From Escherichia coli (GTDB lineage: Bacteria; Pseudomonadota; Gammaproteobacteria; Enterobacterales; Enterobacteriaceae): a DNA stretch of 28,938 bases. The notes below the pieces were generated by a model. It worked only from the letters and a program-made list of their open reading frames with translations, searched no databases and was not told the origin of the DNA. Positions within the stretch are counted from its first letter, which is position 1. The number at the start of each line of letters is the position of its first letter. The DNA is taken from the NCBI RefSeq assembly GCF_003334315.1, contig NZ_QOWR01000059.1; one strand, written 5' to 3'. Made by a program: the position numbers and the translations under genes. Below, piece after piece: positions 1 through 28,938 of this stretch.

Positions 1-204
1 GGTTGAGAAGCGGTGTAAGTGAACTGCAGTTGCCATGTTTTACGGCAGTGAGAGCAGAGATAGCGCTGATGTCCGGCGGTGCTTTTGCCGTTACGCACCA
101 CCCCGTCAGTAGCTGAACAGGAGGGACAGCTGATAGAAACAGAAGCCACTGGAGCACCTCAAAAACACCATCATACACTAAATCAGTAAGTTGGCAGCAT
201 CACC
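1..204 (-). mobile_element. insA: IS1 insertion sequence, terminal portion (inverted repeat plus 5' part of insA); continues beyond window start
   Basis: Reverse complement of 1..204 reads GGTGATGCTGCCAACTTACTGATTTAGTGTATGATGGTG...GTGGCTTCTGTTTCTATCAGCTGTCCCTCCTGTTCAGCTACTGACGGGGTGGTGCGTAACGGCAAAAGCACC..., which I recognise as the IS1 terminal inverted repeat followed by the insA start (GTG at 149 on minus strand; translation [24 protein letters not shown]...). Recognition from memory, no search run. Confidence 0.85.
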
Positions 205-275
205 CGGCAGCATAACTACCCGTAGCGGCGAATAGTGCGGCAGCCAGCGCAGACGAAATAAATCTTAATTTCATA
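205..275 (-). pseudogene. sfmA: 5' remnant of a fimbrial major-subunit gene (sfmA-like signal peptide), interrupted by IS1 after about codon 23
   Basis: Minus strand from 275 reads ATG AAA TTA AGA TTT ATT TCG TCT GCG CTG GCT GCC GCA CTA TTC GCC GCT ACG GGT AGT TAT GCT GCC G (MKLRFISSALAAALFAATGSYAA), a typical fimbrial signal peptide, then runs straight into the IS1 terminus GGTGATG; the frame hits TGA immediately. Position next to folD matches the K-12 folD/sfmA arrangement. Confidence 0.55.
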
Positions 276-744
276 TATATTCCTTCAATCTCATTTATCG
301 ACTCCACATCCGTATATAACCGATTACTTTATTTAAGACACTGATAGTAGTAAATTCCTTTTTATCCTCTAAGAATGTCTTAATTGAAAATATGCACTCT
401 ATTCTAAAAAATAGAGAGCCCCGTTAGATGAATACTTCCGCGCATAATATATTCAACACAAATATAGACCTGAAGCGGTAAATTACCAGGCTGAAAATTC
501 TTTTTATATTGTCAGGTATTTCTTAAATTATCTTAATCCTTAGACAAGGAAATAAATCAGTTCCAGATTTACAACGCCATCATGGACGAAAAATGAAGCT
601 TTCAGTCTCAGCGACGGTGCGCCTCACCTTCGCAAGAGGTCGCTTCACGCGATAAATCTGAAACGAAACCTGACAGCGCGCCCCGCTTCTGACAAAATAG
701 GCGCATCCCCTTCGACCTACGTAACAGATGGAATCCTCTCTCTG

Positions 745-4048: not shown

Positions 4049-4543
4049 ATGGTTACTTTCCACACCAATCACGGCGATATTGTCATCAAAACTTTTGACG
4101 ATAAAGCACCTGAAACAGTTAAAAACTTCCTGGACTACTGCCGCGAAGGTTTTTACAACAACACCATTTTCCACCGTGTTATCAACGGCTTTATGATTCA
4201 GGGCGGCGGTTTTGAACCGGGCATGAAACAAAAAGCCACCAAAGAACCGATCAAAAACGAAGCCAACAACGGCCTGAAAAATACCCGTGGTACGCTGGCA
4301 ATGGCACGTACTCAGGCTCCGCACTCTGCAACTGCACAGTTCTTCATCAACGTGGTTGATAACGACTTCCTGAACTTCTCTGGCGAAAGCCTGCAAGGTT
4401 GGGGCTACTGCGTGTTTGCTGAAGTGGTTGACGGCATGGACGTGGTAGACAAAATCAAAGGTGTTGCAACCGGTCGTAGCGGTATGCACCAGGACGTGCC
4501 AAAAGAAGACGTTATCATTGAAAGCGTGACCGTTAGCGAGTAA
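4049..4543 (+). CDS. ppiB: Peptidyl-prolyl cis-trans isomerase B (cyclophilin)
   Basis: 164-aa [61 protein letters not shown]..., cyclophilin fold signature. Confidence 0.96.
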
Positions 4544-4545
4544 TC

Positions 4546-5268
4546 GTGGCGACACTCTTTATTGCAGATCTTCATCTCTGCGTGGAAGAACCGGCGATCA
4601 CCGCCGGTTTTCTGCGTTTTTTAGCGGGGGAAGCCCGCAAGGCCGACGCGCTGTATATTCTTGGCGATCTGTTTGAAGCATGGATTGGCGACGACGATCC
4701 CAACCCACTCCATCGCCAGATGGCGGCAGCGATCAAAGCGGTGTCCGATTCCGGCGTTCCCTGTTATTTCATTCATGGCAACCGTGATTTTCTGCTCGGC
4801 AAACGCTTTGCCCGTGAAAGCGGCATGACATTATTGCCGGAAGAAAAGGTGCTCGAACTTTATGGTCGCCGGGTGTTGATTATGCATGGCGACACGCTGT
4901 GCACCGATGACGCGGGTTATCAGGCTTTTCGCGCCAAAGTCCACAAACCCTGGCTGCAAACGCTATTCCTCGCCCTGCCGTTGTTTGTGCGCAAACGCAT
5001 TGCCGCGCGAATGCGAGCGAACAGTAAAGAAGCCAACAGCAGTAAATCGCTGGCGATCATGGACGTTAACCAAAACGCGGTAGTCAGTGCGATGGAAAAA
5101 CATCAGGTGCAATGGCTGATCCACGGGCATACCCATCGCCCGGCGGTACATGAACTTATCGCCAACCAGCAACCTGCTTTTCGCGTGGTACTCGGTGCCT
5201 GGCATACAGAAGGTTCGATGGTGAAAGTCACGGCGGATGACGTTGAGCTGATTCATTTTCCGTTTTAA
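4546..5268 (+). CDS. lpxH: UDP-2,3-diacylglucosamine pyrophosphohydrolase (lipid A biosynthesis)
   Basis: 240-aa [29 protein letters not shown]... calcineurin-like phosphoesterase motifs (DLH, GNRD, GHTH); GTG start 2 nt after ppiB stop. Confidence 0.94.
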
Positions 5269-5298
5269 AAAACCCGCAACTTTGCTGATTTCACAGCC

Positions 5299-5314
5299 AC
5301 GCAACCGTTTTCCT
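5299..5314 (+). promoter_or_regulatory. PurR operator (PUR box) upstream of purEK
   Basis: ACGCAACCGTTTTCCT resembles the PUR-box consensus ACGCAAACGTTTTCNT; located about 70 nt upstream of purE ATG. Confidence 0.6.
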
Positions 5315-5385
5315 TGCTCTCTTTCCGTGCTATTCTCTGTGCCCTCTAAAGCCGAGAGTTGTGCACCACAGGAGTTTTAAGACGC

Positions 5386-5895
5386 ATGTCTTCCCGCAAT
5401 AATCCGGCGCGTGTCGCCATCGTGATGGGGTCCAAAAGCGACTGGGCTACCATGCAGTTCGCCGCCGAAATCTTCGAAATCCTGAATGTCCCGCACCACG
5501 TTGAAGTGGTTTCTGCTCACCGCACCCCCGATAAACTGTTCAGCTTCGCCGAAAGCGCCGAAGAGAACGGTTATCAGGTGATTATTGCGGGCGCAGGCGG
5601 CGCGGCGCACCTGCCAGGTATGATTGCCGCCAAAACGCTGGTGCCGGTGCTGGGCGTGCCAGTACAGAGCGCCGCACTGAGCGGTGTCGATAGCCTCTAT
5701 TCTATCGTACAAATGCCGCGCGGCATTCCGGTGGGTACGCTGGCGATTGGTAAAGCTGGCGCGGCAAACGCGGCGTTACTGGCAGCACAAATTCTTGCGA
5801 CTCATGATAAAGAACTGCACCAGCGTCTGAATGACTGGCGCAATGCCCAGACCGACGAAGTACTGGAAAACCCGGACCCGCGAGGTGCGGCATGA
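5386..5895 (+). CDS. purE: N5-carboxyaminoimidazole ribonucleotide mutase
   Basis: Start taken at ATG 5386 ([20 protein letters not shown]...) preceded by GGAG at 5371..5374; 169 aa; the ORF-track start at 5359 lacks an RBS. Confidence 0.95.
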
Positions 5896-6959
5896 AACAG
5901 GTTTGCGTCCTCGGTAACGGGCAGTTAGGCCGTATGCTGCGTCAGGCAGGCGAACCGTTAGGCATTGCTGTCTGGCCAGTCGGGCTGGACGCTGAACCGG
6001 CGGCGGTGCCTTTTCAACAAAGCGTGATTACCGCTGAGATAGAACGCTGGCCGGAAACCGCATTAACCCGCGAGCTGGCGCGCCATCCGGCCTTTGTGAA
6101 CCGCGATGTGTTCCCGATTATTGCTGACCGTCTGACTCAGAAGCAGCTTTTCGATAAGCTCCACCTGCCGACTGCACCGTGGCAGTTACTTGCCGAACGC
6201 AGCGAGTGGCCTGCGGTGTTTGATCGTTTAGGTGAGCTGGCGATTGTTAAGCGTCGCACTGGTGGCTATGACGGTCGCGGTCAATGGCGTTTACGCGCCG
6301 ATGAAACCGAGCAGTTACCGGCTGAATGCTACGGCGAATGTATTGTCGAGCAGGGCATAAACTTCTCTGGTGAAGTGTCGCTGGTTGGCGCGCGCGGCTT
6401 TGATGGCAGTACCGTGTTTTATCCGCTGACGCATAACCTGCATCAGGACGGTATTTTGCGCACCAGCGTCGCTTTTCCGCAGGCCAACGCACAGCAGCAG
6501 GCGCAAGCCGAAGAGATGCTGTCGGCGATTATGCAGGAGCTGGGCTATGTGGGCGTGATGGCGATGGAGTGTTTTGTCACCCCGCAAGGTCTGCTGATCA
6601 ACGAACTGGCTCCGCGTGTGCATAACAGCGGTCACTGGACACAAAACGGTGCCAGCATCAGCCAGTTTGAGCTGCATCTGCGGGCGATTACCGATCTGCC
6701 GTTACCGCAACCAGTAGTGAATAATCCGTCGGTGATGATCAATCTGATTGGTAGCGATGCGAATTATGACTGGCTGAAATTGCCGCTGGTGCATCTGCAC
6801 TGGTACGACAAAGAAGTCCGTCCGGGGCGTAAAGTGGGGCATCTGAATTTGACCGACAGCGACACATCGCGTCTGACTGCGACGCTGGAAGCCTTAATCC
6901 CGCTGCTGCCGCCGGAATATGCCAGCGGCGTGATTTGGGCGCAGAGTAAGTTCGGTTAA
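5892..6959 (+). CDS. purK: N5-carboxyaminoimidazole ribonucleotide synthetase (ATP-grasp)
   Basis: 355-aa [30 protein letters not shown]...; ATGA overlap with purE stop (translational coupling). Confidence 0.95.
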
Positions 6960-6975
6960 CTGGTGCTCTATTCTT

Positions 6976-7133
<158 letters not shown>

Positions 7134-7153
7134 CAAATGTCTAATGCCTACGA

Positions 7154-8047
7154 CTACAGCGAAATACAGGTCCCCGCTTCGCCCGCCAGCGTCTCTTCAA
7201 TTCGCGATAACGCCCCAATCCACGCGGGTTTACCACCGCTTCTGACATAACCACTCACCGCCGTTACCTTCGGCCCCATCGAACCATCGGCTTTGGCAAA
7301 TGGCGCTAACTCATCCGGTGTGGCATGGCGAATGGCGCGTTGCTGCGGCGTTCCCCAGTTTTCATATACCGCATCAGCATCAGTGAGGATCACCAGCCCA
7401 TCGGCGTTAATCTGCTCAGCGAGCAACGCAGCAGCGAGATCTTTATCAATCACCGCTTCACTCCCTGCCCCATCTTCCGTCACAGGCACACCGCCGCCGC
7501 CACTGCAAATCACCACATGCCCCTCTTTGAGCAACAACTCGATGGCTTCGCTGTCGAGAATTTTACGCGGTTGCGGAGACGCCACCACCCGGCGCAAATA
7601 TTTACCATCACGTTTCATCTGCCAGCCGTAAGCCGCTTCCAGTGCCTCTTGTTCTTCTGGCTGATAAACCGGACCAATAAATTTCTCTGGCTGCAAAAAC
7701 GCCGGATCATCAGGCGAAACCTCAATGCGCGTCAGCACCGTCGTCACGGGCGGCATCTGCGGCTGTGCGCTCAAACTCTGCGCCAGCATATAGCCAATCA
7801 TCCCCTGACTTTCTGCCACCAGCACATCCAGCGGATACGGTTCTACCTCTTTCCACGCCAGATTCTGCAATGCCAGCAGCCCCACCTGCGGCCCGTTGCC
7901 GTGAACAATCGCCAGCCGATAAGAACGGGCCAGGCGCGCCAGCGCGGGTACAGCACTGGCGATATTGCGATATTGATTTTCTGCCGTCAGCGCCTCACCG
8001 CGCTGGAGTAAGGCGTTTCCCCCAAGAGCTACAACCAGTGTTTTCAT
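7154..8047 (-). CDS. ybcF: Carbamate kinase (ArcC-like; reported as AllK)
   Basis: 297-aa [43 protein letters not shown]... amino-acid kinase family; start overlaps ylbF stop (ATGA). Confidence 0.9.
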
Positions 8048-8869: not shown

Positions 8870-10129
8870 TCAACCAATCCCCATGCTTTCAGCCAGTGCT
8901 TCCAGCGCCTGTTCAAAACACGCCAGCGGTGCCCGCACAGTGCCTGCGCCAATCTGCCCGATCCCCGCCTCTTTATGGGCGATACCGGTATTGATGAGTG
9001 GCGTAATGCCGGTTTCTACCACGCGACGAATGTCCAGTCCCAGGCACGCGCCCTGAAAATCCCAGCCTGGGATCTGCAACTGCATATTGCGCTCAAGGTA
9101 AATTTCCGCCATCTCTTCAGATACCGCTCTGGCCGCTTCCATGCCACCCGCACCGACAAAGCGCGTTACGCCAGGCGCTGCGATCATTGCCGCACCTCCG
9201 ATACCAAAGGTTTCGGTAATCGCGCTATCGCCCATATCCGGGTTCGCCTGCTCCTGCGAGAAGCCGGTGAAAAACAGACCTTGCGGAGTGTTTACAGGCG
9301 CAGTAAACCAGCGTTCGCCCAGCCCGCTTACCCGAATCCCGAACATATTGCCGTTGCGGGTCATTGCCGTGACGATGCTGCCTGCGCGGATCATCGCGCC
9401 AGCATCCATCGCCGCCTTGCAGTAAGCCATCGCGAGGTTGAGGAAGAACTGATCGGTCACGCTGAGGAAATCCATCACTTCGGCGATGTGCTGTTTATCA
9501 TGATCGAGGCGAGCAATTTGTGGGACCAGCGCACGCATTAACAGTGCAGAGGAAGCAATATTGCGTTGATGGAACTCATCGCCCATCGTAATGCCCTGCG
9601 CCATCATCGCCGTGAGATCGATACCGCGCTCCATGCGCCCCAGCGCCGCGCTTAATACTGGCATTAACACATCGCGCATCCAGCGATGGCGAGTCAGGAC
9701 ATCTTCGCCGTAAGCGCCAAAACGCATCACTTTGCCGATACCTTCGTTGAGGTTGCAGTACGCCCGGTTGCCGTCGGTCACGTTCTCAACCACCAGCATC
9801 GGCATACTGGCAGAAGTAATACCGCCCATTGGACCGACGGCATTCACATGGTGACAAGGAATGAAGTTCACTTCCCCCTGCTCCAGTATTGCCAGCGCCT
9901 GCGCTTCATCTTTCGCCCAGCCTTCGAACAGACATGCGCCCACGCACGCCCCTTTCATGGGTCCGGTCATCTCCTGCCAGCGCATTGGCGGCCCGGCGTG
10001 AAGCAGTGTTTTGCCCTCGTTTAGTTCGCTGATAAGTGAAGAAGCCGGTTGCACATCCAGCCAGTGTGGACGAGCGCGACGAATTTGTTCGATAACCGCA
10101 GCATTGGCTTGCGCCACTGATGTAAACAT
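8870..10129 (-). CDS. ylbE: YlbE (DUF1116 family; reported subunit of oxamate carbamoyltransferase), intact
   Basis: Uninterrupted 419-aa [29 protein letters not shown]...; AAGGGG RBS immediately upstream, overlapping the fdrA stop. Confidence 0.85.
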
Positions 10130-10138
10130 GGGAACCCC

Positions 10139-11806
10139 TTATTGCAAACGTTCTAATAAACGAGCCAGTTTTTTATTGCCGCCGGCGACTGGCGACCATT
10201 GGTAATGCACAACCGGTTTGCTGGCGCTTTGTAGCTCCAGCGCAAAGCTGCGTAATCCGATGTTAATCACGGCGACGTTTTCCAGTAATGACGGTGTGTG
10301 TTGCTGAGTGGCAGGCGAAAGCGGACGAATCAGTGCCGCCGCCAGCAAGGTGGCTTCCGGCAGCGAACTCACTACCGCGATCCCTGCATCTTCCAGCGTG
10401 GCGATTTGCTGCGAGCGGCATTGCGGGTCACGTTCAGTGCCTGTCACCGTGGCAATGGCATACAGTGGTTGATTGTCTGAACGCGCAGCACAGGCTTTTT
10501 GCCAGGCGCTTACCAGCGAGGCGGCAGGATCGGCGGTCGCACCGAAGCCAATCACGACATCAAGCAGCAGCACACGCACTTGCGGTTTAGCGCCGAGATC
10601 GGTAATTAACTGGTTGCGTAAGGTTGGGTCGATCATCGGATGGGGACGCCCGACGGTGTAGAAATCATCGCCGAGGTCAATAATCTGGTGGCCATCGGCG
10701 TCCAGCATCATGCCATGTTGATGGGTATCGTCGGCTTCCACGCCAAGGTGCCCGGCAAGTAATCCCGCCGCTTCGGCGGCCAGCGTACCGCCGGTATACA
10801 AACCGCAAATAAATCCGCTGCTGACAGGTGCTATTGCGTTACGTCGCGCCGTGACGCGTGAAAGCAGGCAAGCCAGGCGTGCGGCCTCATCCAGCGAGGA
10901 GGCAAACCAGACATTCTCGTCGCGGGCCACCGCCGGGGTATAACCTAAAAACAGCGCCACCGTCGGTTTGCCGGTTGCTTTCATGGCATTAACAATTTTC
11001 AGACGCACAGCTTCGGCAGGCGGTTTTGAAACAAATGCCAGCACTTCGCTTTTCTCGTCTGCACTGAGCATTTCCAGCGCCGTCAGCGCACTGATGCCGC
11101 CCACTTCACGGCTGAGGTCGCGCCCGCCAAGGCCAATCGCGTGAGTAATTCCCTCCCCTGCCAGCGCAATCTGCGAACACAGTTCCTGAATCCCGGTACC
11201 GGAAGCGCCAATGACGCCAATATTGCCTTCCGGCATCACGTTAGCAAAAGCCAGCGGCGTGCCGGCAATCATCGACGTACCGCAGTCCGGCCCCATCACC
11301 AGCAAGCCTTTTTCCCGCGCGCGGCTTTTAAGTTGGATTTCATCTTCCAGCGTGACGTTATCGGAGAACATCATCACGTTGAGGTTGCGATCCAGCGCCT
11401 GGTTCGCCAGCTCCGCCGCATACTCGCCAGCCACTGAAATCAGCGCCAGACTGGCGTCGGGTAATTTCTGACAGGCACTGTCCCAGCGACGCACCTGCGT
11501 CAAGGCCTGGCTGCTGCCTGACCCCTGCGCCAGTTGTTTTAGCGCCTCTTCAAGCTGCTGCATAATCGCCTACGCGATCCCCGCATCCGCCGCTTCGCTA
11601 CGAATTGTCACGCAAATATCGTTCGACGTGGCGTTATTAAAATCGTCATGCCAGAAACCTGTGGTATCTAATAACGCTTTATTGGCGGGCGTACCCATCA
11701 TTACGGAAACATCATCAACATTTTCTGATTCGCTGAGTTTTCGTGAAATAATCATTAAACTGACCGAATCCTGAAAACACCCTTTTTTAATAAAGGCGTG
11801 GATCAT
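10139..11806 (-). pseudogene. fdrA: fdrA (succinyl-CoA-synthetase-like protein; reported AllF) interrupted by an in-frame TAG at codon 79
   Basis: ORFs 11570..11806 (78 aa, ...AADAGIA) and 10139..11563 (474 aa, MQQLEE...) are in the same frame. Minus strand reads GCG-TAG-GCG-ATT-ATG, so 78 + stop + 2 + 474 = 555 codons, the length I recall for K-12 FdrA. Confidence 0.75.
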
Positions 11807-15225: not shown

Positions 15226-15267
15226 GTCATACCACTCGCCTGATTATTTTTAGCTATGTTGGATTTT

Positions 15268-15294
15268 GCCACGGTTTATACCGTGGCTTTTTTT
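15268..15294 (+). terminator. Rho-independent terminator of allD-allC-allE operon
   Basis: GCCACGG-TTTATA-CCGTGGC followed by TTTTTTT. Confidence 0.75.
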
Positions 15295-15302
15295 GTAACA
15301 TT

Positions 15303-15406
15303 GCCTGATGCGCTTCGCTTATCAGGCCTACATGATCTCTGCAATATATAGAATTTGCGCGATTTTCAGGAAGGATATGGTACTCATGCCGCATCCGGCA
15401 TGAGTA
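15303..15406. repeat. REP-like palindromic elements between convergent allE and glxK
   Basis: GCCTGATGCGCTTCGCTTATCAGGCCTACA (REP-type) at 15303..15332 and palindrome TACTCATGCC-GCATCC-GGCATGAGTA at 15381..15406. Confidence 0.6.
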
Positions 15407-22788: not shown

Positions 22789-24570
22789 TTATTCATAGTG
22801 CATGAAGCAGGTTTCAGTCGGTGCGTCCGCTGCGTTATCGGCGATATCTTCAAATTCCATGACGTTATCCAGTTCGCTGCCCATCGAAATATTGGTCACA
22901 CGCTCGAGAATAACTTCCACGACTACCGGTACCCGATATTGCGCCATTAAGGCTTTCGCCTGTTCAAAGGCTGGCGCAATATCTTCCGGTTTGAAGACGC
23001 GAATAGCTTTACAACCTAAACCTTCCGCTACTTTTACGTGGTCAACACCGTAGCCATTCACTTCACTGGAGTTGATATTCTCGAAAGCGAGTTGCACGCA
23101 GTAGTCCATGTCAAAAGCGCGTTGTGACTGACGAATCAGCCCCAGATAAGCGTTGTTGACCAGCACATGGATGTACGGAATGTTGAACTGCGCGCCAACA
23201 GCTAACTCTTCAATCAGGAACTGGAAGTCAAAGTCGCCAGAAATCGCCACCACATTGCGTTTCGGATCAGCGGCACAAACCCCTAGCGCAGCCGGAATCG
23301 TCCAGCCTAACGGACCAGCCTGACCACAGTTGATCCAGTGGCGGTCTTTAAAGACATGCAGCATTTGTGCCGCAGCGATTTGTGACAGACCAATGGTGGT
23401 GACATAACAAACATCGCGACCAAAGGCTTTGTTCATCTCTTCATACACGCGCTGCGGTTTCACCGGCACGTTGTCGAAGTGGGTTTTGCGCAGCAAAGTG
23501 CGTTTACGCTGCTGGCAGTCGGCGACCCATTCTTTACGACACGGCAGACGACCCGCTTTTTGCATCTCCTGCGCCACTTCAACCAGCAGTGTCAGCGCCG
23601 CTTTAGCATCAGAGACAATACCGAGATCCGGACACAGCACGCGACCAATTTGCGTCGGCTCAATATCAATATGAACGATTTTGCGCCCTTCGGTGTATTT
23701 CTCTACCGAGCCGGTATGACGGTTAGCAAAACGGTTACCGATACCAAACACCATGTCAGACGCCAGCAGCGTTGCGTTACCGTAACGATGCGCGGTTTGC
23801 AGACCCACCATCCCGGCCATCAGTTCATGATCGTCCGGGATACAGCCCCAGCCCATTAGCGTTGGGATCACCGGAACGCTGGTCAGTTCAGCAAACTGTT
23901 GTAACAGTGCAGCTGCGTCAGCATTAATTACCCCGCCCCCGGCAACAATCACCGGACGTTCGGCCTGGATTAACATTTCTACAGCTTTTTCGATCTGCAT
24001 ACGGCTGGCAGCAGGTTTGTAGACCGGCAGCGGTTCGTACATGTCAGGATCAAACTCGATTTCCGCAACCTGAACGTCGAACGGTAAATCCACCAGTACC
24101 GGACCCGGACGACCAGAACGCATCAGGTGAAATGCCTGTTGCAGCACGCGAGGCACCAGCGCCGCTTCACGAACTGTAACCGCCATTTTGCTGACCGGTT
24201 TAGCAATTGCTTCAATATCTACGGCCTGAAAATCTTCTTTATGCAGACGGGCGCGCGGTGCCTGGCCGGTAATGCACAGAATAGGAATGGAATCAGCAGA
24301 AGCGGAATAGAGCGCGGTGATCATGTCCGTGCCCGCAGGACCGGAAGTCCCCAGACATACGCCGATATTCCCTGCCGTTGCGCGGGTATAACCTTCCGCC
24401 ATGTGCGAAGCACCTTCCACATGACGCGCCAGAATGTGACGAATACCGCCGTGCTTACGCATCGCTGAGTAGAACGGATTGATTGCAGCTCCCGGAACAC
24501 CGAAGGCGGTAGTGATACCTTCTTTCTCCAGCACATACATTGCCGCGTCAACGGCTCTCATTTTTGCCAT
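22789..24570 (-). CDS. gcl: Glyoxylate carboligase (tartronate-semialdehyde synthase, ThDP-dependent)
   Basis: Start at ATG 24568..24570 ([34 protein letters not shown]...), 593 aa; the ORF-track start at 24660 is 30 codons upstream in the promoter. Confidence 0.95.
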
Positions 24571-24590
24571 TTTATTCCTACCTCTATTTA

Positions 24591-24607
24591 TTGGAAAATT
24601 TTTCCAA
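24591..24607. promoter_or_regulatory. AllR operator in the gcl promoter
   Basis: Palindrome TTGGAAAATTTTTCCAA about 20 nt upstream of the gcl start; matches the AllR box as I recall it. Confidence 0.7.
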
Positions 24608-24620
24608 CTTTCAAATTTTG

Positions 24621-24647
24621 TCAAAAAAACCCGCTCCGCAGAGCGGG
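24621..24647 (-). terminator. Rho-independent terminator of allR
   Basis: On minus strand: CCCGCTC-TGCG-GAGCGGG followed by TTTTTTT, about 12 nt after the allR stop. Confidence 0.75.
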
Positions 24648-24659
24648 ATGCGACAGACA

Positions 24660-25475
24660 TTATGGATGTGCTTTCAGTCCCAACGCCGTGCTGATATCGC
24701 GGGCGGTGTCTCTGACCAGCTCACCCTGACTGACAAAACGATCTTCTGTCAGTCTTGATGAAGGCCCGGAGATGGAGATAGCGGCAACAACACTACCGAC
24801 ATCATCGTAAATTGCTGAAGCTATGCAATTCAGACCTACAACATGCTCTTCTTTATCTACGGTATAGCCCAGTTCACGCGCTTGTTCCAGGTCCTTCAGC
24901 AAGGTGGGCATATCCACAAGCGTAGTTGGCGTAAACTGCTGCAAACCGGTTTGCAGAATGATGCTCATCAACTCCTCTTCCGCCAGCGGATAAAGCAGCG
25001 CTTTGCCCGCACCGGAAGCATGCAGTGGCAGACGACTGCCCAGTGGCGCACACATCCTGACCATCGATTTACACTCTAACTGACCAATTAATACCGCTTC
25101 ATTGCCGTTACGGATCGCGACATTGACCGTTTCGCCGGAAAGTAACATCAGGCGGCGCATAAACGGCCCGGCGACGGAGAGGACATCGCGGTTATGGATG
25201 TACGCCGCACCGACGTTAAAGACACCTAATCCTATATGCCACCAGCCTAATTGACTGTCCTGATAGACAAAATCCGCTGCCTGTAAAACCTTCAGCAAGC
25301 GAAAGGTCGTGGAGAGCGGCAAATCCAGATTGAGAGAAATATCGCTAACCGACGAACTTCCCCCACTTTTTTCCAAATATTGCAGAATCGCAATTCCCCG
25401 CTCTAACGCCTGTGCGCCCTTCTGTGCCACAGGCTCCGCCTGTCCTGGCCTGCCGCGCCGTCTAACTTCCGTCAT
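24660..25475 (-). CDS. allR: IclR-family repressor of allantoin/glyoxylate genes
   Basis: 271-aa [67 protein letters not shown]... (IclR HTH plus effector domain). Confidence 0.95.
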
Positions 25476-28410: not shown

Positions 28411-28470
28411 GAGAGTTACCGGTTTTGATATGAGTGTCGAATCCTTATCCAAAACAAGAGGTAACTCTCA
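28411..28470 (+). other. Long inverted repeat / stem-loop spanning the RBS and start codon of the downstream HTH ORF
   Basis: GAGAGTTACCGGTTTTG (28411..28427) pairs with CAAAACAAGAGGTAACTCTC (28451..28470); the 3' arm contains AAGAGG and ends one nt before ATG 28471. Confidence 0.5.
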
Positions 28471-28841
28471 TGCTTCATACTGCCAATCCCGTCATCAAAC
28501 ACAAAGCCGGTTTGCTCAATCTGGCTGAAGAACTCAGCAACGTATCAAAAGCCTGTAAAATCATGGGCGTTTCGCGTGATACGTTTTATCGTTACCGCGA
28601 ACTGGTCGCTGAAGGCGGTGTGGATGCGCAGATTAATCGTAGTCGCCGCGCTCCTAACCTTAAGAACCGTACCGATGAGGCAACTGAACAGGCTGTTGTT
28701 GATTACGCCGTCGCTTTCCCGACACATGGTCAGCACCGGGCCAGCAACGAGCTGCGTAAACAGGGGGTTTTTATCTCCGACAGTGGTGTCCGTTCTGTCT
28801 GGTTACTCCATAACCTTGAGAATCTCAAAAGACGATACTGA
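28471..28841 (+). pseudogene. ylbG: Transposase-like helix-turn-helix protein fragment (ylbG-like IS remnant)
   Basis: MLHTANPVIKHKAGLLNLAEELSNVSKACKIMGVSRDTFYRYRELVAEGGVDAQ... resembles the N-terminal HTH of IS-family transposases with no catalytic domain following; start taken at ATG 28471 behind AAGAGG rather than the ORF-track start 28434. The position matches where I recall the K-12 pseudogene ylbG. Confidence 0.5.
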
Positions 28842-28861: not shown

Positions 28862-28938
28862 TGATCTTACCCAGCAATAGTGGACACGCGGCTAAGTGAG
28901 TAAACTCTCAGTCAGAGGTGACTCACATGACAAAAACA
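28862..28938 (+). mobile_element. insE: IS3 left end (IRL and start of orfA), continues beyond window end
   Basis: TGATCTTACCCAGCAATAGTGGACACGCGGCTAAGTGAGTAAACTCTCAGTCAGAGGTGACTCACATGACAAAAACA matches my memory of the IS3 left terminus and the OrfA start (ATG 28927, MTKT...). Confidence 0.85.

Follow-up and report, generated by a model that had tools for sequence, protein, structure and literature searches.

An IS1 left end joined to codon 24 of sfmA in Escherichia coli: probable endpoint of an IS1-mediated adjacent deletion

Results

An IS1A left end lies at the left edge of the window

The window is the whole stretch of E. coli DNA analysed here, 28,938 nucleotides in length. Its first 204 nt are, on the minus strand, the left end of an IS1 element of the IS1A type, which runs past the left edge of the window (Table 1). 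Window 1-204 was identical at 204 of 204 positions to the IRL-proximal 204 nt of complete 768-bp IS1A copies. The copies compared were those of VTB97420v, NT1F31, LCP22S3_I2, PI12, TOE3 and cM2a, which carry the RefSeq label 'IS1-like element IS1A family transposase'. The terminal inverted repeat GGTGATGCTGCCAACTTACTGAT stands exactly at the element boundary (204..182, minus strand). A zinc-ribbon InsA starts about 55 nt inside IRL, with a promoter overlapping IRL. The CTGCCA/TATGAT site (170..197, minus strand) is presumably the known IS1 promoter that lies partly inside IRL. A recorded product identical to the 49-aa InsA fragment of the window is assigned to PF03811 (Zn_ribbon_InsA), and the fragment itself is uninformative, being present in 832 blocks in the exact-protein look-up. 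An earlier note, made from the sequence alone, had called the element IS1. The IRL, the insA start and the 204/204 match to IS1A copies confirm this, and what adjoins sfmA in window 1-204 is indeed IRL followed by insA codons 1-49.

Both ends of the window stop inside IS elements (IS1 at 1-204, the left end of an IS3 from about 28863), and the window looks like a contig bounded by repeats.

Table 1. Features at the left end of the window, and simple IS1 insertions found in sfmA of other genomes
Feature	Position	Strand	Basis or remark
IS1 left end: IRL, insA promoter and insA codons 1-49	1..204	-	identity to IS1A copies
insA 5' part, GTG start at 149, 49 codons, cut by window edge	1..149	-	translation
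Promoter-like site of insA (PIRL): CTGCCA, 16-nt spacer, TATGAT	170..197	-	consensus scan
IRL, 23 bp, GGTGATGCTGCCAACTTACTGAT, outermost base 204	182..204	-	direct reading and pattern match
Short reading frame MKLRFISSALAAALFAATGSYAAG*, stop TGA (202..200) from IS1 terminus	200..274	-	ORF list and sequence
sfmA remnant: nt 1-70, codons 1-23 and first base of codon 24	205..274	-	K-12 b0530 comparison
ATGCTGCCG (sfmA nt 62-70), 9 bp adjoining IRL, presumed 9-bp target	205..213	-	sequence
folD-sfmA divergent intergenic region, intact, GC about 0.39, upstream regions of both genes	275..744	.	K-12 comparison
folD, intact, 288 aa	745..1611	+	ORF and annotation of identical sequence in relatives
Simple IS1 insertion, RM9088	sfmA nt 112-120		duplication AATGCTGCC
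Simple IS1 insertion, PSS-16	sfmA nt 140-147		
Simple IS1 insertion, EC-TO75	sfmA nt 321-329		
Simple IS1 insertion, KMi006	sfmA nt 397-405		

The sfmA remnant ends at nucleotide 70

The IS1 end is joined to the 5' part of sfmA. Nucleotides 1-70 of sfmA (window 274..205, minus strand) are identical to K-12 b0530, and the sequence diverges into IS1 thereafter. The same 70 nt are also identical to the intact sfmA of the nearest relative, LCP22S3_I2. The match of both parts is far beyond chance, because it is perfect over the full length to known sequences. On the minus strand the junction reads ...TATGCTGCCG followed directly by GGTGATGCTGCC. Past sfmA nt 70, K-12 continues as ...TATGCTGCCGTTGTAGATGG and the window as ...TATGCTGCCGGGTGATGCTGCC; nt 71 is T in K-12, and the window has the terminal G of IS1 there. 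The identification of the gene as sfmA of sfmACDHF, divergent from folD, is upheld by the 70-nt identity and by the position, with a 470-bp intergenic region between the two genes. The segment 205..275, which had been proposed as sfmA, does align to the gene, but the ATG begins at 274 and not at 275. The peptide read from it was correct and is followed by one further codon (G) and then by a TGA formed at the junction.

The first 8 bases of ATGCTGCCG are the same as IS1 IRL nt 5-12. Consistently, the 8-mer ATGCTGCC occurs twice on the minus strand, at plus-strand positions 206-213 and 193-200, as the earlier note had pointed out. The note had also concluded that the junction is ambiguous by a few bases. 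This ambiguity is ruled out: the two ATGCTGCC copies flank the junction with GGGTG between them, and 70 sfmA bases and 204 IS1 bases tile positions 1-274 with no base in common.

The complete sfmA frame has 180 codons, and 23 codons and one base are left. The claimed inactivation of sfmA is therefore right; the gene is a 24-codon stub that is unable to make a fimbrial subunit. The first 22 or so residues of SfmA are a predicted signal peptide, judging from their hydrophobic character, and the remnant is essentially this signal peptide with about two residues more.

The junction between IRL and sfmA nt 70 had no exact match in 5,426 complete E. coli genomes, in JGI metagenome contigs or in GTDB species representatives. 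The 35-aa ORF of the sfmA stub was not on record in the exact-protein look-up. Element, gene and mechanism had all been described before; what is new, within the collections searched, is this exact junction alone.

The IS1 end is not expected to affect folD

The intergenic region of 470 nt has 2 mismatches against K-12 and no SNP against NT1F31. Its intactness bears on the proposal that outward transcription from IS1 could reach folD, since folD lies 540 nt from the IS1 end with its own upstream region. IS1 ends form fusion promoters if a -10 in the flank is correctly distanced (PMC9330008). The only promoter-like site in the IS1 end of the window is the insA promoter, which is on the minus strand and directed away from both sfmA and folD. 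An outward -35-like hexamer, TTGGCA, is found in IRL at 191-196. No acceptable -10 was found for it at 16-18 nt (TAACTA, AACTAC and ACTACC match at most 2 of 6 positions), and a consensus scan found no plus-strand promoter before position 384. Thus a hybrid promoter with its -35 in the IS end and a spaced -10 in the flank was not found, the proposal is unsupported, and no effect of the IS1 junction on folD is expected.

The lineage of the window carries a resident IS1A in sfmD

The window belongs to a phylogroup-A-like, IS1-rich lineage. Beyond the IS1-sfmA junction, its identity to a group of IS1-rich E. coli isolates is about 99.97%, and 9 SNPs in 28.7 kb separate it from NT1F31. A Shigella origin, which the IS1 load had raised, is not needed given this identity to named E. 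coli isolates. At the right end of the window the IS3 left end (from about 28863) adjoins a ylbG remnant, and this IS3-ylbG junction is common to about 55 complete genomes. The YlbG product is ubiquitous, and its end is the normal ylbG end and not made by IS3. The YlbE variant of the window was found by exact-protein look-up in 101 blocks, in other lineages. The truncated 474-aa FdrA recovers this clone from SRR10357290, with 100% identity over 14.5 kb, and from ERR271230, with 100% identity over 8.2 kb; the contigs concerned stop at window position 7105, short of sfmA.

LCP22S3_I2, NT1F31 and TOE3 have a simple IS1A insertion in sfmD with a 9-bp duplication of nt 489-497. It is oriented like the window's IS1 end, IRL toward sfmC, sfmA and folD. 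The exact junction between IRL and sfmD nt 497 was found in 34 records, and 19 of the window's 25 nearest relatives are among them. Two of the 25 (cM2a and PI12) have derived forms, and the other 4 did not show the ancestral junction. Among relatives, the resident IS1A copy is the same at 768 of 768 positions, and the window matches its last 204 nt without a difference. This distribution suggests that the lineage of the window ancestrally carries IS1A in sfmD.

The resident copy has been rearranged repeatedly in these relatives. In cM2a, IRL now adjoins sfmD nt 145 and IRR adjoins sfmH nt 434. In PI12, IRL is at sfmC nt 36 and IRR lies in fimZ, everything from sfmC to fimZ having been lost. 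Two of the 19 genomes with the ancestral IRL junction are changed as well. 2018-11-3CC has a small deletion on the IRR side, which puts this side at sfmD nt 526. In ST12468 the segment from sfmD nt 497 to about sfmA nt 94-102 is inverted; two IS1A copies in inverted orientation bracket it, and the 9-bp target TTGAAGGCG is duplicated in inverted form. ST12468 shows the classical inversion product of intramolecular replicative transposition, with the resident copy attacking sfmA. A resident IS1 with the observed end facing the segment that would be lost, as an adjacent deletion demands, is thus found nearby in the relatives. The sfmD copy is not universal in the wider lineage with the IS3-ylbG junction: in PSS-16 sfmD is intact, and IS1 is a simple insertion in sfmA.

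IS1 junctions at sfmA in finished genomes are deletions as well as insertions

Chimeric junction queries were run against complete E. coli genomes and the loci were then read. With IRL toward the 5' part of sfmA, as in the window, 10 further junction classes were found in 32 genomes; IS1 junctions in the opposite orientation made up 8 classes in 13 genomes. Among the 10 IRL-proximal classes, 4 are simple insertions with 8-9-bp duplications (Table 1) and 6 are deletions (VTB97420v, 19SZHZ886Rt, 26561, 6409, ECONIH4 and E1535). These six one-sided junctions are assigned to deletions because the other IS1 end adjoins sfmD, sfmH or fimZ. 26561 and 6409 have a common IRR flank (sfmD nt 302), with IRL at sfmA nt 230 in the one and at intergenic nt 38 in the other, which is the signature of adjacent deletions growing from one resident copy. 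In ECONIH4 and E1535, IRL is at or near the sfmA end and IRR is in fimZ, with sfmC, sfmD, sfmH and sfmF lost. The combination of an unchanged flank and a new flank without direct repeat was seen in cM2a, PI12 and 2018-11-3CC, and in 26561 compared with 6409.

An IRL-like 8-mer adjoins three IS1 junctions in sfmA

Homology between IS1 ends and hot spots was noted in the early 1980s. The 8-mer ATGCTGCC, which is IRL nt 5-12, has three copies in sfmA (nt 62, 113 and 263), and IRL was found directly adjoining each of them. The copy at nt 62 is that of the window, with the junction after nt 70. At nt 263, 19SZHZ886Rt and three other genomes have the junction after nt 271, at the same 9-mer ATGCTGCCG (nt 263-271). 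At nt 113, RM9088 has a simple insertion with the target duplication AATGCTGCC at nt 112-120. The events in the window, RM9088 and 19SZHZ886Rt are independent: 157 mismatches in 19.6 kb separate 19SZHZ886Rt from the window, and RM9088 is set apart by a duplication of its own and by a variant IRL.

Under a crude, uniform null over a stretch of about 540 nt, the probability that at least 2 of the 10 other IRL junctions fall on 4 motif-adjacent positions is P ~0.002. None of the 8 opposite-orientation classes was at a motif position, with positions estimated from match spans. Genome-wide, IRL followed by at least 7 nt of CGGCAGCAT was found in 4 genomes, as one event; IRL followed by GGCAGCA(T) was found in 23 records, about 5 events by annotated locus; and the orientation-flipped control gave 2 records and 1 event. 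The genome-wide signal is weak, and this test is weakly informative.

It is a doubtful but conceivable explanation that IS1 has an undescribed, orientation-specific local preference, by which its left end joins DNA that copies its own inner terminal 8-mer. A possible cause is that InsAB' uses its end-binding domain to dock on target DNA as well. If such a preference were true, GGCAGCAT should be enriched beside IRL only, over the orientation-flipped control, and if the reuse of IRL-like 8-mers held genome-wide, it would add detail to IS1 target selection. For now, the reuse of ATGCTGCC is a modest, unproven curiosity.

Discussion

The junction is probably the endpoint of a deletion made by the resident IS1

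Since the window ends 204 nt inside IS1, neither a deletion nor a simple insertion is provable from it. Our preferred reading, to which we give a probability of roughly 0.6, is that the junction arose by an IS1-mediated adjacent deletion of about 1.9 kb, made by the resident IS1A of sfmD, and not by a fresh insertion. It is more likely to be a deletion endpoint because the resident sfmD copy has repeatedly made one-sided deletions and an inversion into sfmC and sfmA. We infer both that the ancestor of this isolate carried the sfmD copy and that the junction is a deletion endpoint. The wording of the earlier note, by which IS1 was inserted into sfmA, is probably incorrect: one IS1 end is visible, and an IS1A in the same orientation was already in sfmD of the lineage.

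Intramolecular target-primed transposition leads to adjacent deletions or inversions and leaves the element without direct repeats, which is typical of IS1/Tn9 (PMC9330008). In the proposed route, IS1A would already have been resident in sfmD, with the 9-bp duplication of nt 489-497 and IRL facing sfmA. The resident IRL end would then have attacked a target in cis, ATGCTGCCG at sfmA nt 62-70. With the deletion geometry, everything between this target and the element would be lost, namely sfmA nt 71-543, sfmC and sfmD nt 1-497, which spans 1,912 bp at K-12 coordinates 558,282-560,193. The predicted product is folD, the intergenic region, sfmA nt 1-70, IRL-IS1-IRR and sfmD from nt 489 onward, or a further eroded form of it. 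Beyond IRR, the sequence in the plus-strand sense of the window would be expected to be CGCTCACGG..., which is sfmD nt 497 to 489, and the remaining element would have no target-site duplication. By this deletion the sfm operon, already inactive, would lose the major subunit, the chaperone and part of the usher, and the upstream region of folD would be kept.

Two other ways of deriving the junction from known alleles were rejected. The inversion product of the resident sfmD::IS1 would join the 5' part of sfmA to IRR, as in ST12468, and the window has IRL there. Slippage from the nt-271 allele, as a 201-bp deletion between the two ATGCTGCCG repeats, does not fit the background, in that the 19SZHZ886Rt lineage differs (157 mismatches in 19.6 kb).

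The main rival is a fresh simple insertion, in which a complete IS1 from elsewhere entered sfmA at codon 24 and duplicated ATGCTGCCG. The rest of sfmA (nt 62-543) and the operon would then lie beyond the element, possibly together with sfmD::IS1 1.9 kb downstream, and IRR would be followed by ATGCTGCCG and then by GTTGTAGATGGCGG..., with sfmA resumed from nt 62. Such an event is entirely feasible, because four simple IS1 insertions with 8-9-bp duplications are known in sfmA elsewhere (RM9088, PSS-16, EC-TO75 and KMi006). These lineages have about 35-40 IS1 places per genome, and the region is relatively AT-rich (GC 0.45 in sfmA and 0.39 in the intergenic region, against 0.52 in the window); a preference of IS1 for A/T-rich targets is reported (PMC12903888). 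However, the nearest relatives have a correctly oriented IS1 only 1.9 kb away that is demonstrably rearranging locally, the resident sfmD copy and a separate simple sfmA insertion were found together in no genome examined, and deletion endpoints account for 6 of the 10 IRL-proximal junctions at sfmA. We therefore regard a fresh insertion as unlikely, though it is the reading that competes most closely with the adjacent deletion. A fresh insertion followed by homologous recombination between the two IS1 copies would give the same end structure by another route.

The other side of IS1 could also be joined to sequence outside the sfm operon, if a long deletion had run through fimZ/argU or if IS1 copies far apart had recombined. 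ECONIH4 and E1535, with IRL at or near the sfmA end and IRR in fimZ, provide examples of such an arrangement, and PI12, in the window's own lineage, lost sfmC through fimZ. Mechanistically, this larger rearrangement is still the deletion model in a variant form; it requires extra events on the IRR side, where most close relatives have kept the IRR-sfmD junction, and we consider it improbable. Least probable is an assembly artefact, in which IS1 reads were mis-joined onto an intact sfmA at the contig end. The window does end inside IS elements on both sides, as is typical of contig breaks at repeats, and the junction is in no other dataset searched. Against this, the break is exactly at the IS1 terminus with 9 bp of target-like sequence adjoining, which is how genuine IS1 junctions look. 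A base-perfect IS terminus is not something that assembly produces by chance, and analogous junctions are common at sfmA in finished genomes.

Meaning of the junction

The sfm operon of K-12 is poorly expressed, cryptic and H-NS-repressed (PMC5797941), and the sfm cluster is ancestral and was lost in some phylogroups (PMC3559732). A phenotype is not expected from the junction, because the operon was already broken in sfmD in the lineage of the window. The truncation of a cryptic, H-NS-silenced fimbrial gene by IS1 is routine genome decay and matters little alone. More generally, calling a lone IS end an insertion should be avoided when it lies at the edge of a contig. Such an end frequently marks a deletion or an inversion in IS1-rich lineages, and gene-content calls for the rest of the operon hinge on which of these it is. 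The lineage of the window also provides a natural series of intramolecular IS1 products at one locus, covering the ancestral insertion, one-sided deletions from either end and an inversion, which is a possible case for teaching or benchmarking.

Comparison with known systems

Compared with IS1 (IS1A, 768 bp; E. coli and Shigella), the window has the same IRL, promoter, insA start and 49 insA codons. It covers 204 of the 768 bp, and insB', the -1 frameshift site, IRR and the target duplication lie beyond it. As for the fusion promoters of IS1 (Prentki et al. 1986, as cited in PMC9330008), the IRL of the window also has the outward -35-like TTGGCA, but unlike them the sfmA flank has no -10-like hexamer at 16-18 nt.

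In the adjacent deletions and inversions of IS1/Tn9 (Turlan & Chandler 1995, as cited in PMC9330008), one end of the element is joined to a new nearby target. The relatives of the window resemble this system in their one-sided deletions and in an inversion with an inverted 9-bp duplication. The window differs in that its fixed (IRR) side is out of view, and we infer its membership from the relatives. The other IS1 junctions at sfmA have the gene and the element in common with the window, and the 10 IRL-proximal classes also share its orientation; unlike them, the junction of the window is at nt 70, the most 5' position found.

IS-disrupted chaperone-usher operons are known in E. coli, such as IS2::yqiG and IS5::yhcE in K-12 and IS3::fimG in Crooks (PMC3032704; PMC3559732). 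Like these, the window shows decay of a poorly expressed fimbrial operon by an insertion sequence. Unlike the yqiG, yhcE and fimG cases, another operon and another element are involved, and a whole lineage has been eroded stepwise from a single resident copy.

Erosion of the sfm operon from a resident IS1

The cryptic fimbrial operon sfmACDHF is eroded stepwise from a resident IS1. Within single lineages, one flank of the element stays constant and the other flank shifts (strains 26561 at locus L006 and 6409 at L010; comparison loci L002, L034-L037 and L039). In 26561 and 6409, the constant flank is fixed at sfmD nt 302, and the left terminal inverted repeat (IRL) is joined to sfmA nt 230 in one of the two strains and to intergenic nt 38 in the other. 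The lineage with the flank at sfmD nt 489-497, the duplication around the resident copy in the window's lineage, showed moved junctions on both sides of the element. Those of the IRL were found at sfmC nt 36 and at sfmD nt 145, those of the right repeat (IRR) at sfmD nt 526, sfmH nt 434 and in fimZ. ST12468 carries a textbook IS1 intramolecular inversion, in which the 3' part of sfmA, sfmC and the 5' part of sfmD are inverted between two inverted IS1A copies, with the two copies of the 9-bp target duplication, TTGAAGGCG, in inverted orientation to each other.

The 8-mer ATGCTGCC, which is identical to nt 5-12 of the IRL, occurs three times in sfmA, and each copy was adjoined by an IS1 IRL; the three cases belong to lineages that are independent of one another. 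The eight IS1 junctions in the opposite orientation all lay elsewhere. IS1 may prefer, in one orientation, targets similar to its own end.

Coordinates of the features discussed
Feature	Sequence	Coordinates	Strand	Remark
IRL / ATGCTGCC site	window	193-213		
IRL / ATGCTGCC site	L003	2541-2549		
IRL / ATGCTGCC sites	L004	1764-1772 and 2541-2549		
IS1 inversion	L040 (ST12468)	4204-7627		
STnc480 and ES036 (CssrF) sRNA matches	window	15232-15298 and 15324-15366	-	Rfam, above gathering score
ylbG remnant region	window	28434-28841		
IS3 left end	window	28863-28938		right edge, just past ylbG remnant
allW IS1B insertion region	L032 (19SZHZ886Rt)	22818-25048		
allW IS1B insertion region	L039 (cM2a)	27249-29480		

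Contig boundaries

Because it stops inside an IS element at either end, the window is probably a contig bounded by repeats. The exact IS3-ylbG junction at the right edge is common to about 55 complete E. coli genomes and is therefore a lineage marker. At the left edge, the 49-aa InsA fragment (window 1-149), cut precisely as in the window, recurs identically in the assembly collection, in 832 blocks. Many such blocks (compare L012-L021) are scaffold-internal, with the called IS1 genes in pieces, and therefore several assemblies seem to split IS1 at one shared internal position. Inside the window, independent Logan contigs of SRR10357290 and ERR271230, which belong to the same clone, have a common end at approximately position 7105, between purK and ybcF, and contigs of related strains (L050-L052) end likewise at this place, which suggests a repeat or an assembly-breaking sequence there.

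Changes in the allantoin-utilisation cluster

Seven substitutions were derived in the window relative to its close relative NT1F31, at positions 9525, 11572, 11905, 13110, 19762, 20238 and 21322. When the more distant 19SZHZ886Rt was used as the outgroup, six of them could be polarised, and polarisation failed for 11905. All seven lie inside the allantoin-utilisation cluster (9.5-21.3 kb), and no derived substitution relative to NT1F31 was found in the remaining ~17 kb of the window. G:C>A:T changes make up six of the seven, and the set includes two nonsense mutations, fdrA Q79* and allW W364*. The alleles at 11572 and 11905, the two that were checked, were present in none of 5,426 complete genomes. 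The window's alleles were matched at 100% identity by Logan contigs of SRR10357290 and ERR271230; therefore, the substitutions are genuine, and this clone has been sequenced more than once.

Between allE and glxK, two sRNAs, STnc480 and ES036 (CssrF), were also matched.

In other strains, IS1B insertions were observed in allW (ybbW) at differing positions in two lineages, 19SZHZ886Rt and cM2a. Internal stops were present in glxR and allS of 19SZHZ886Rt, and in ylbE of cM2a. The allantoin cluster seems to have decayed repeatedly in these strains.
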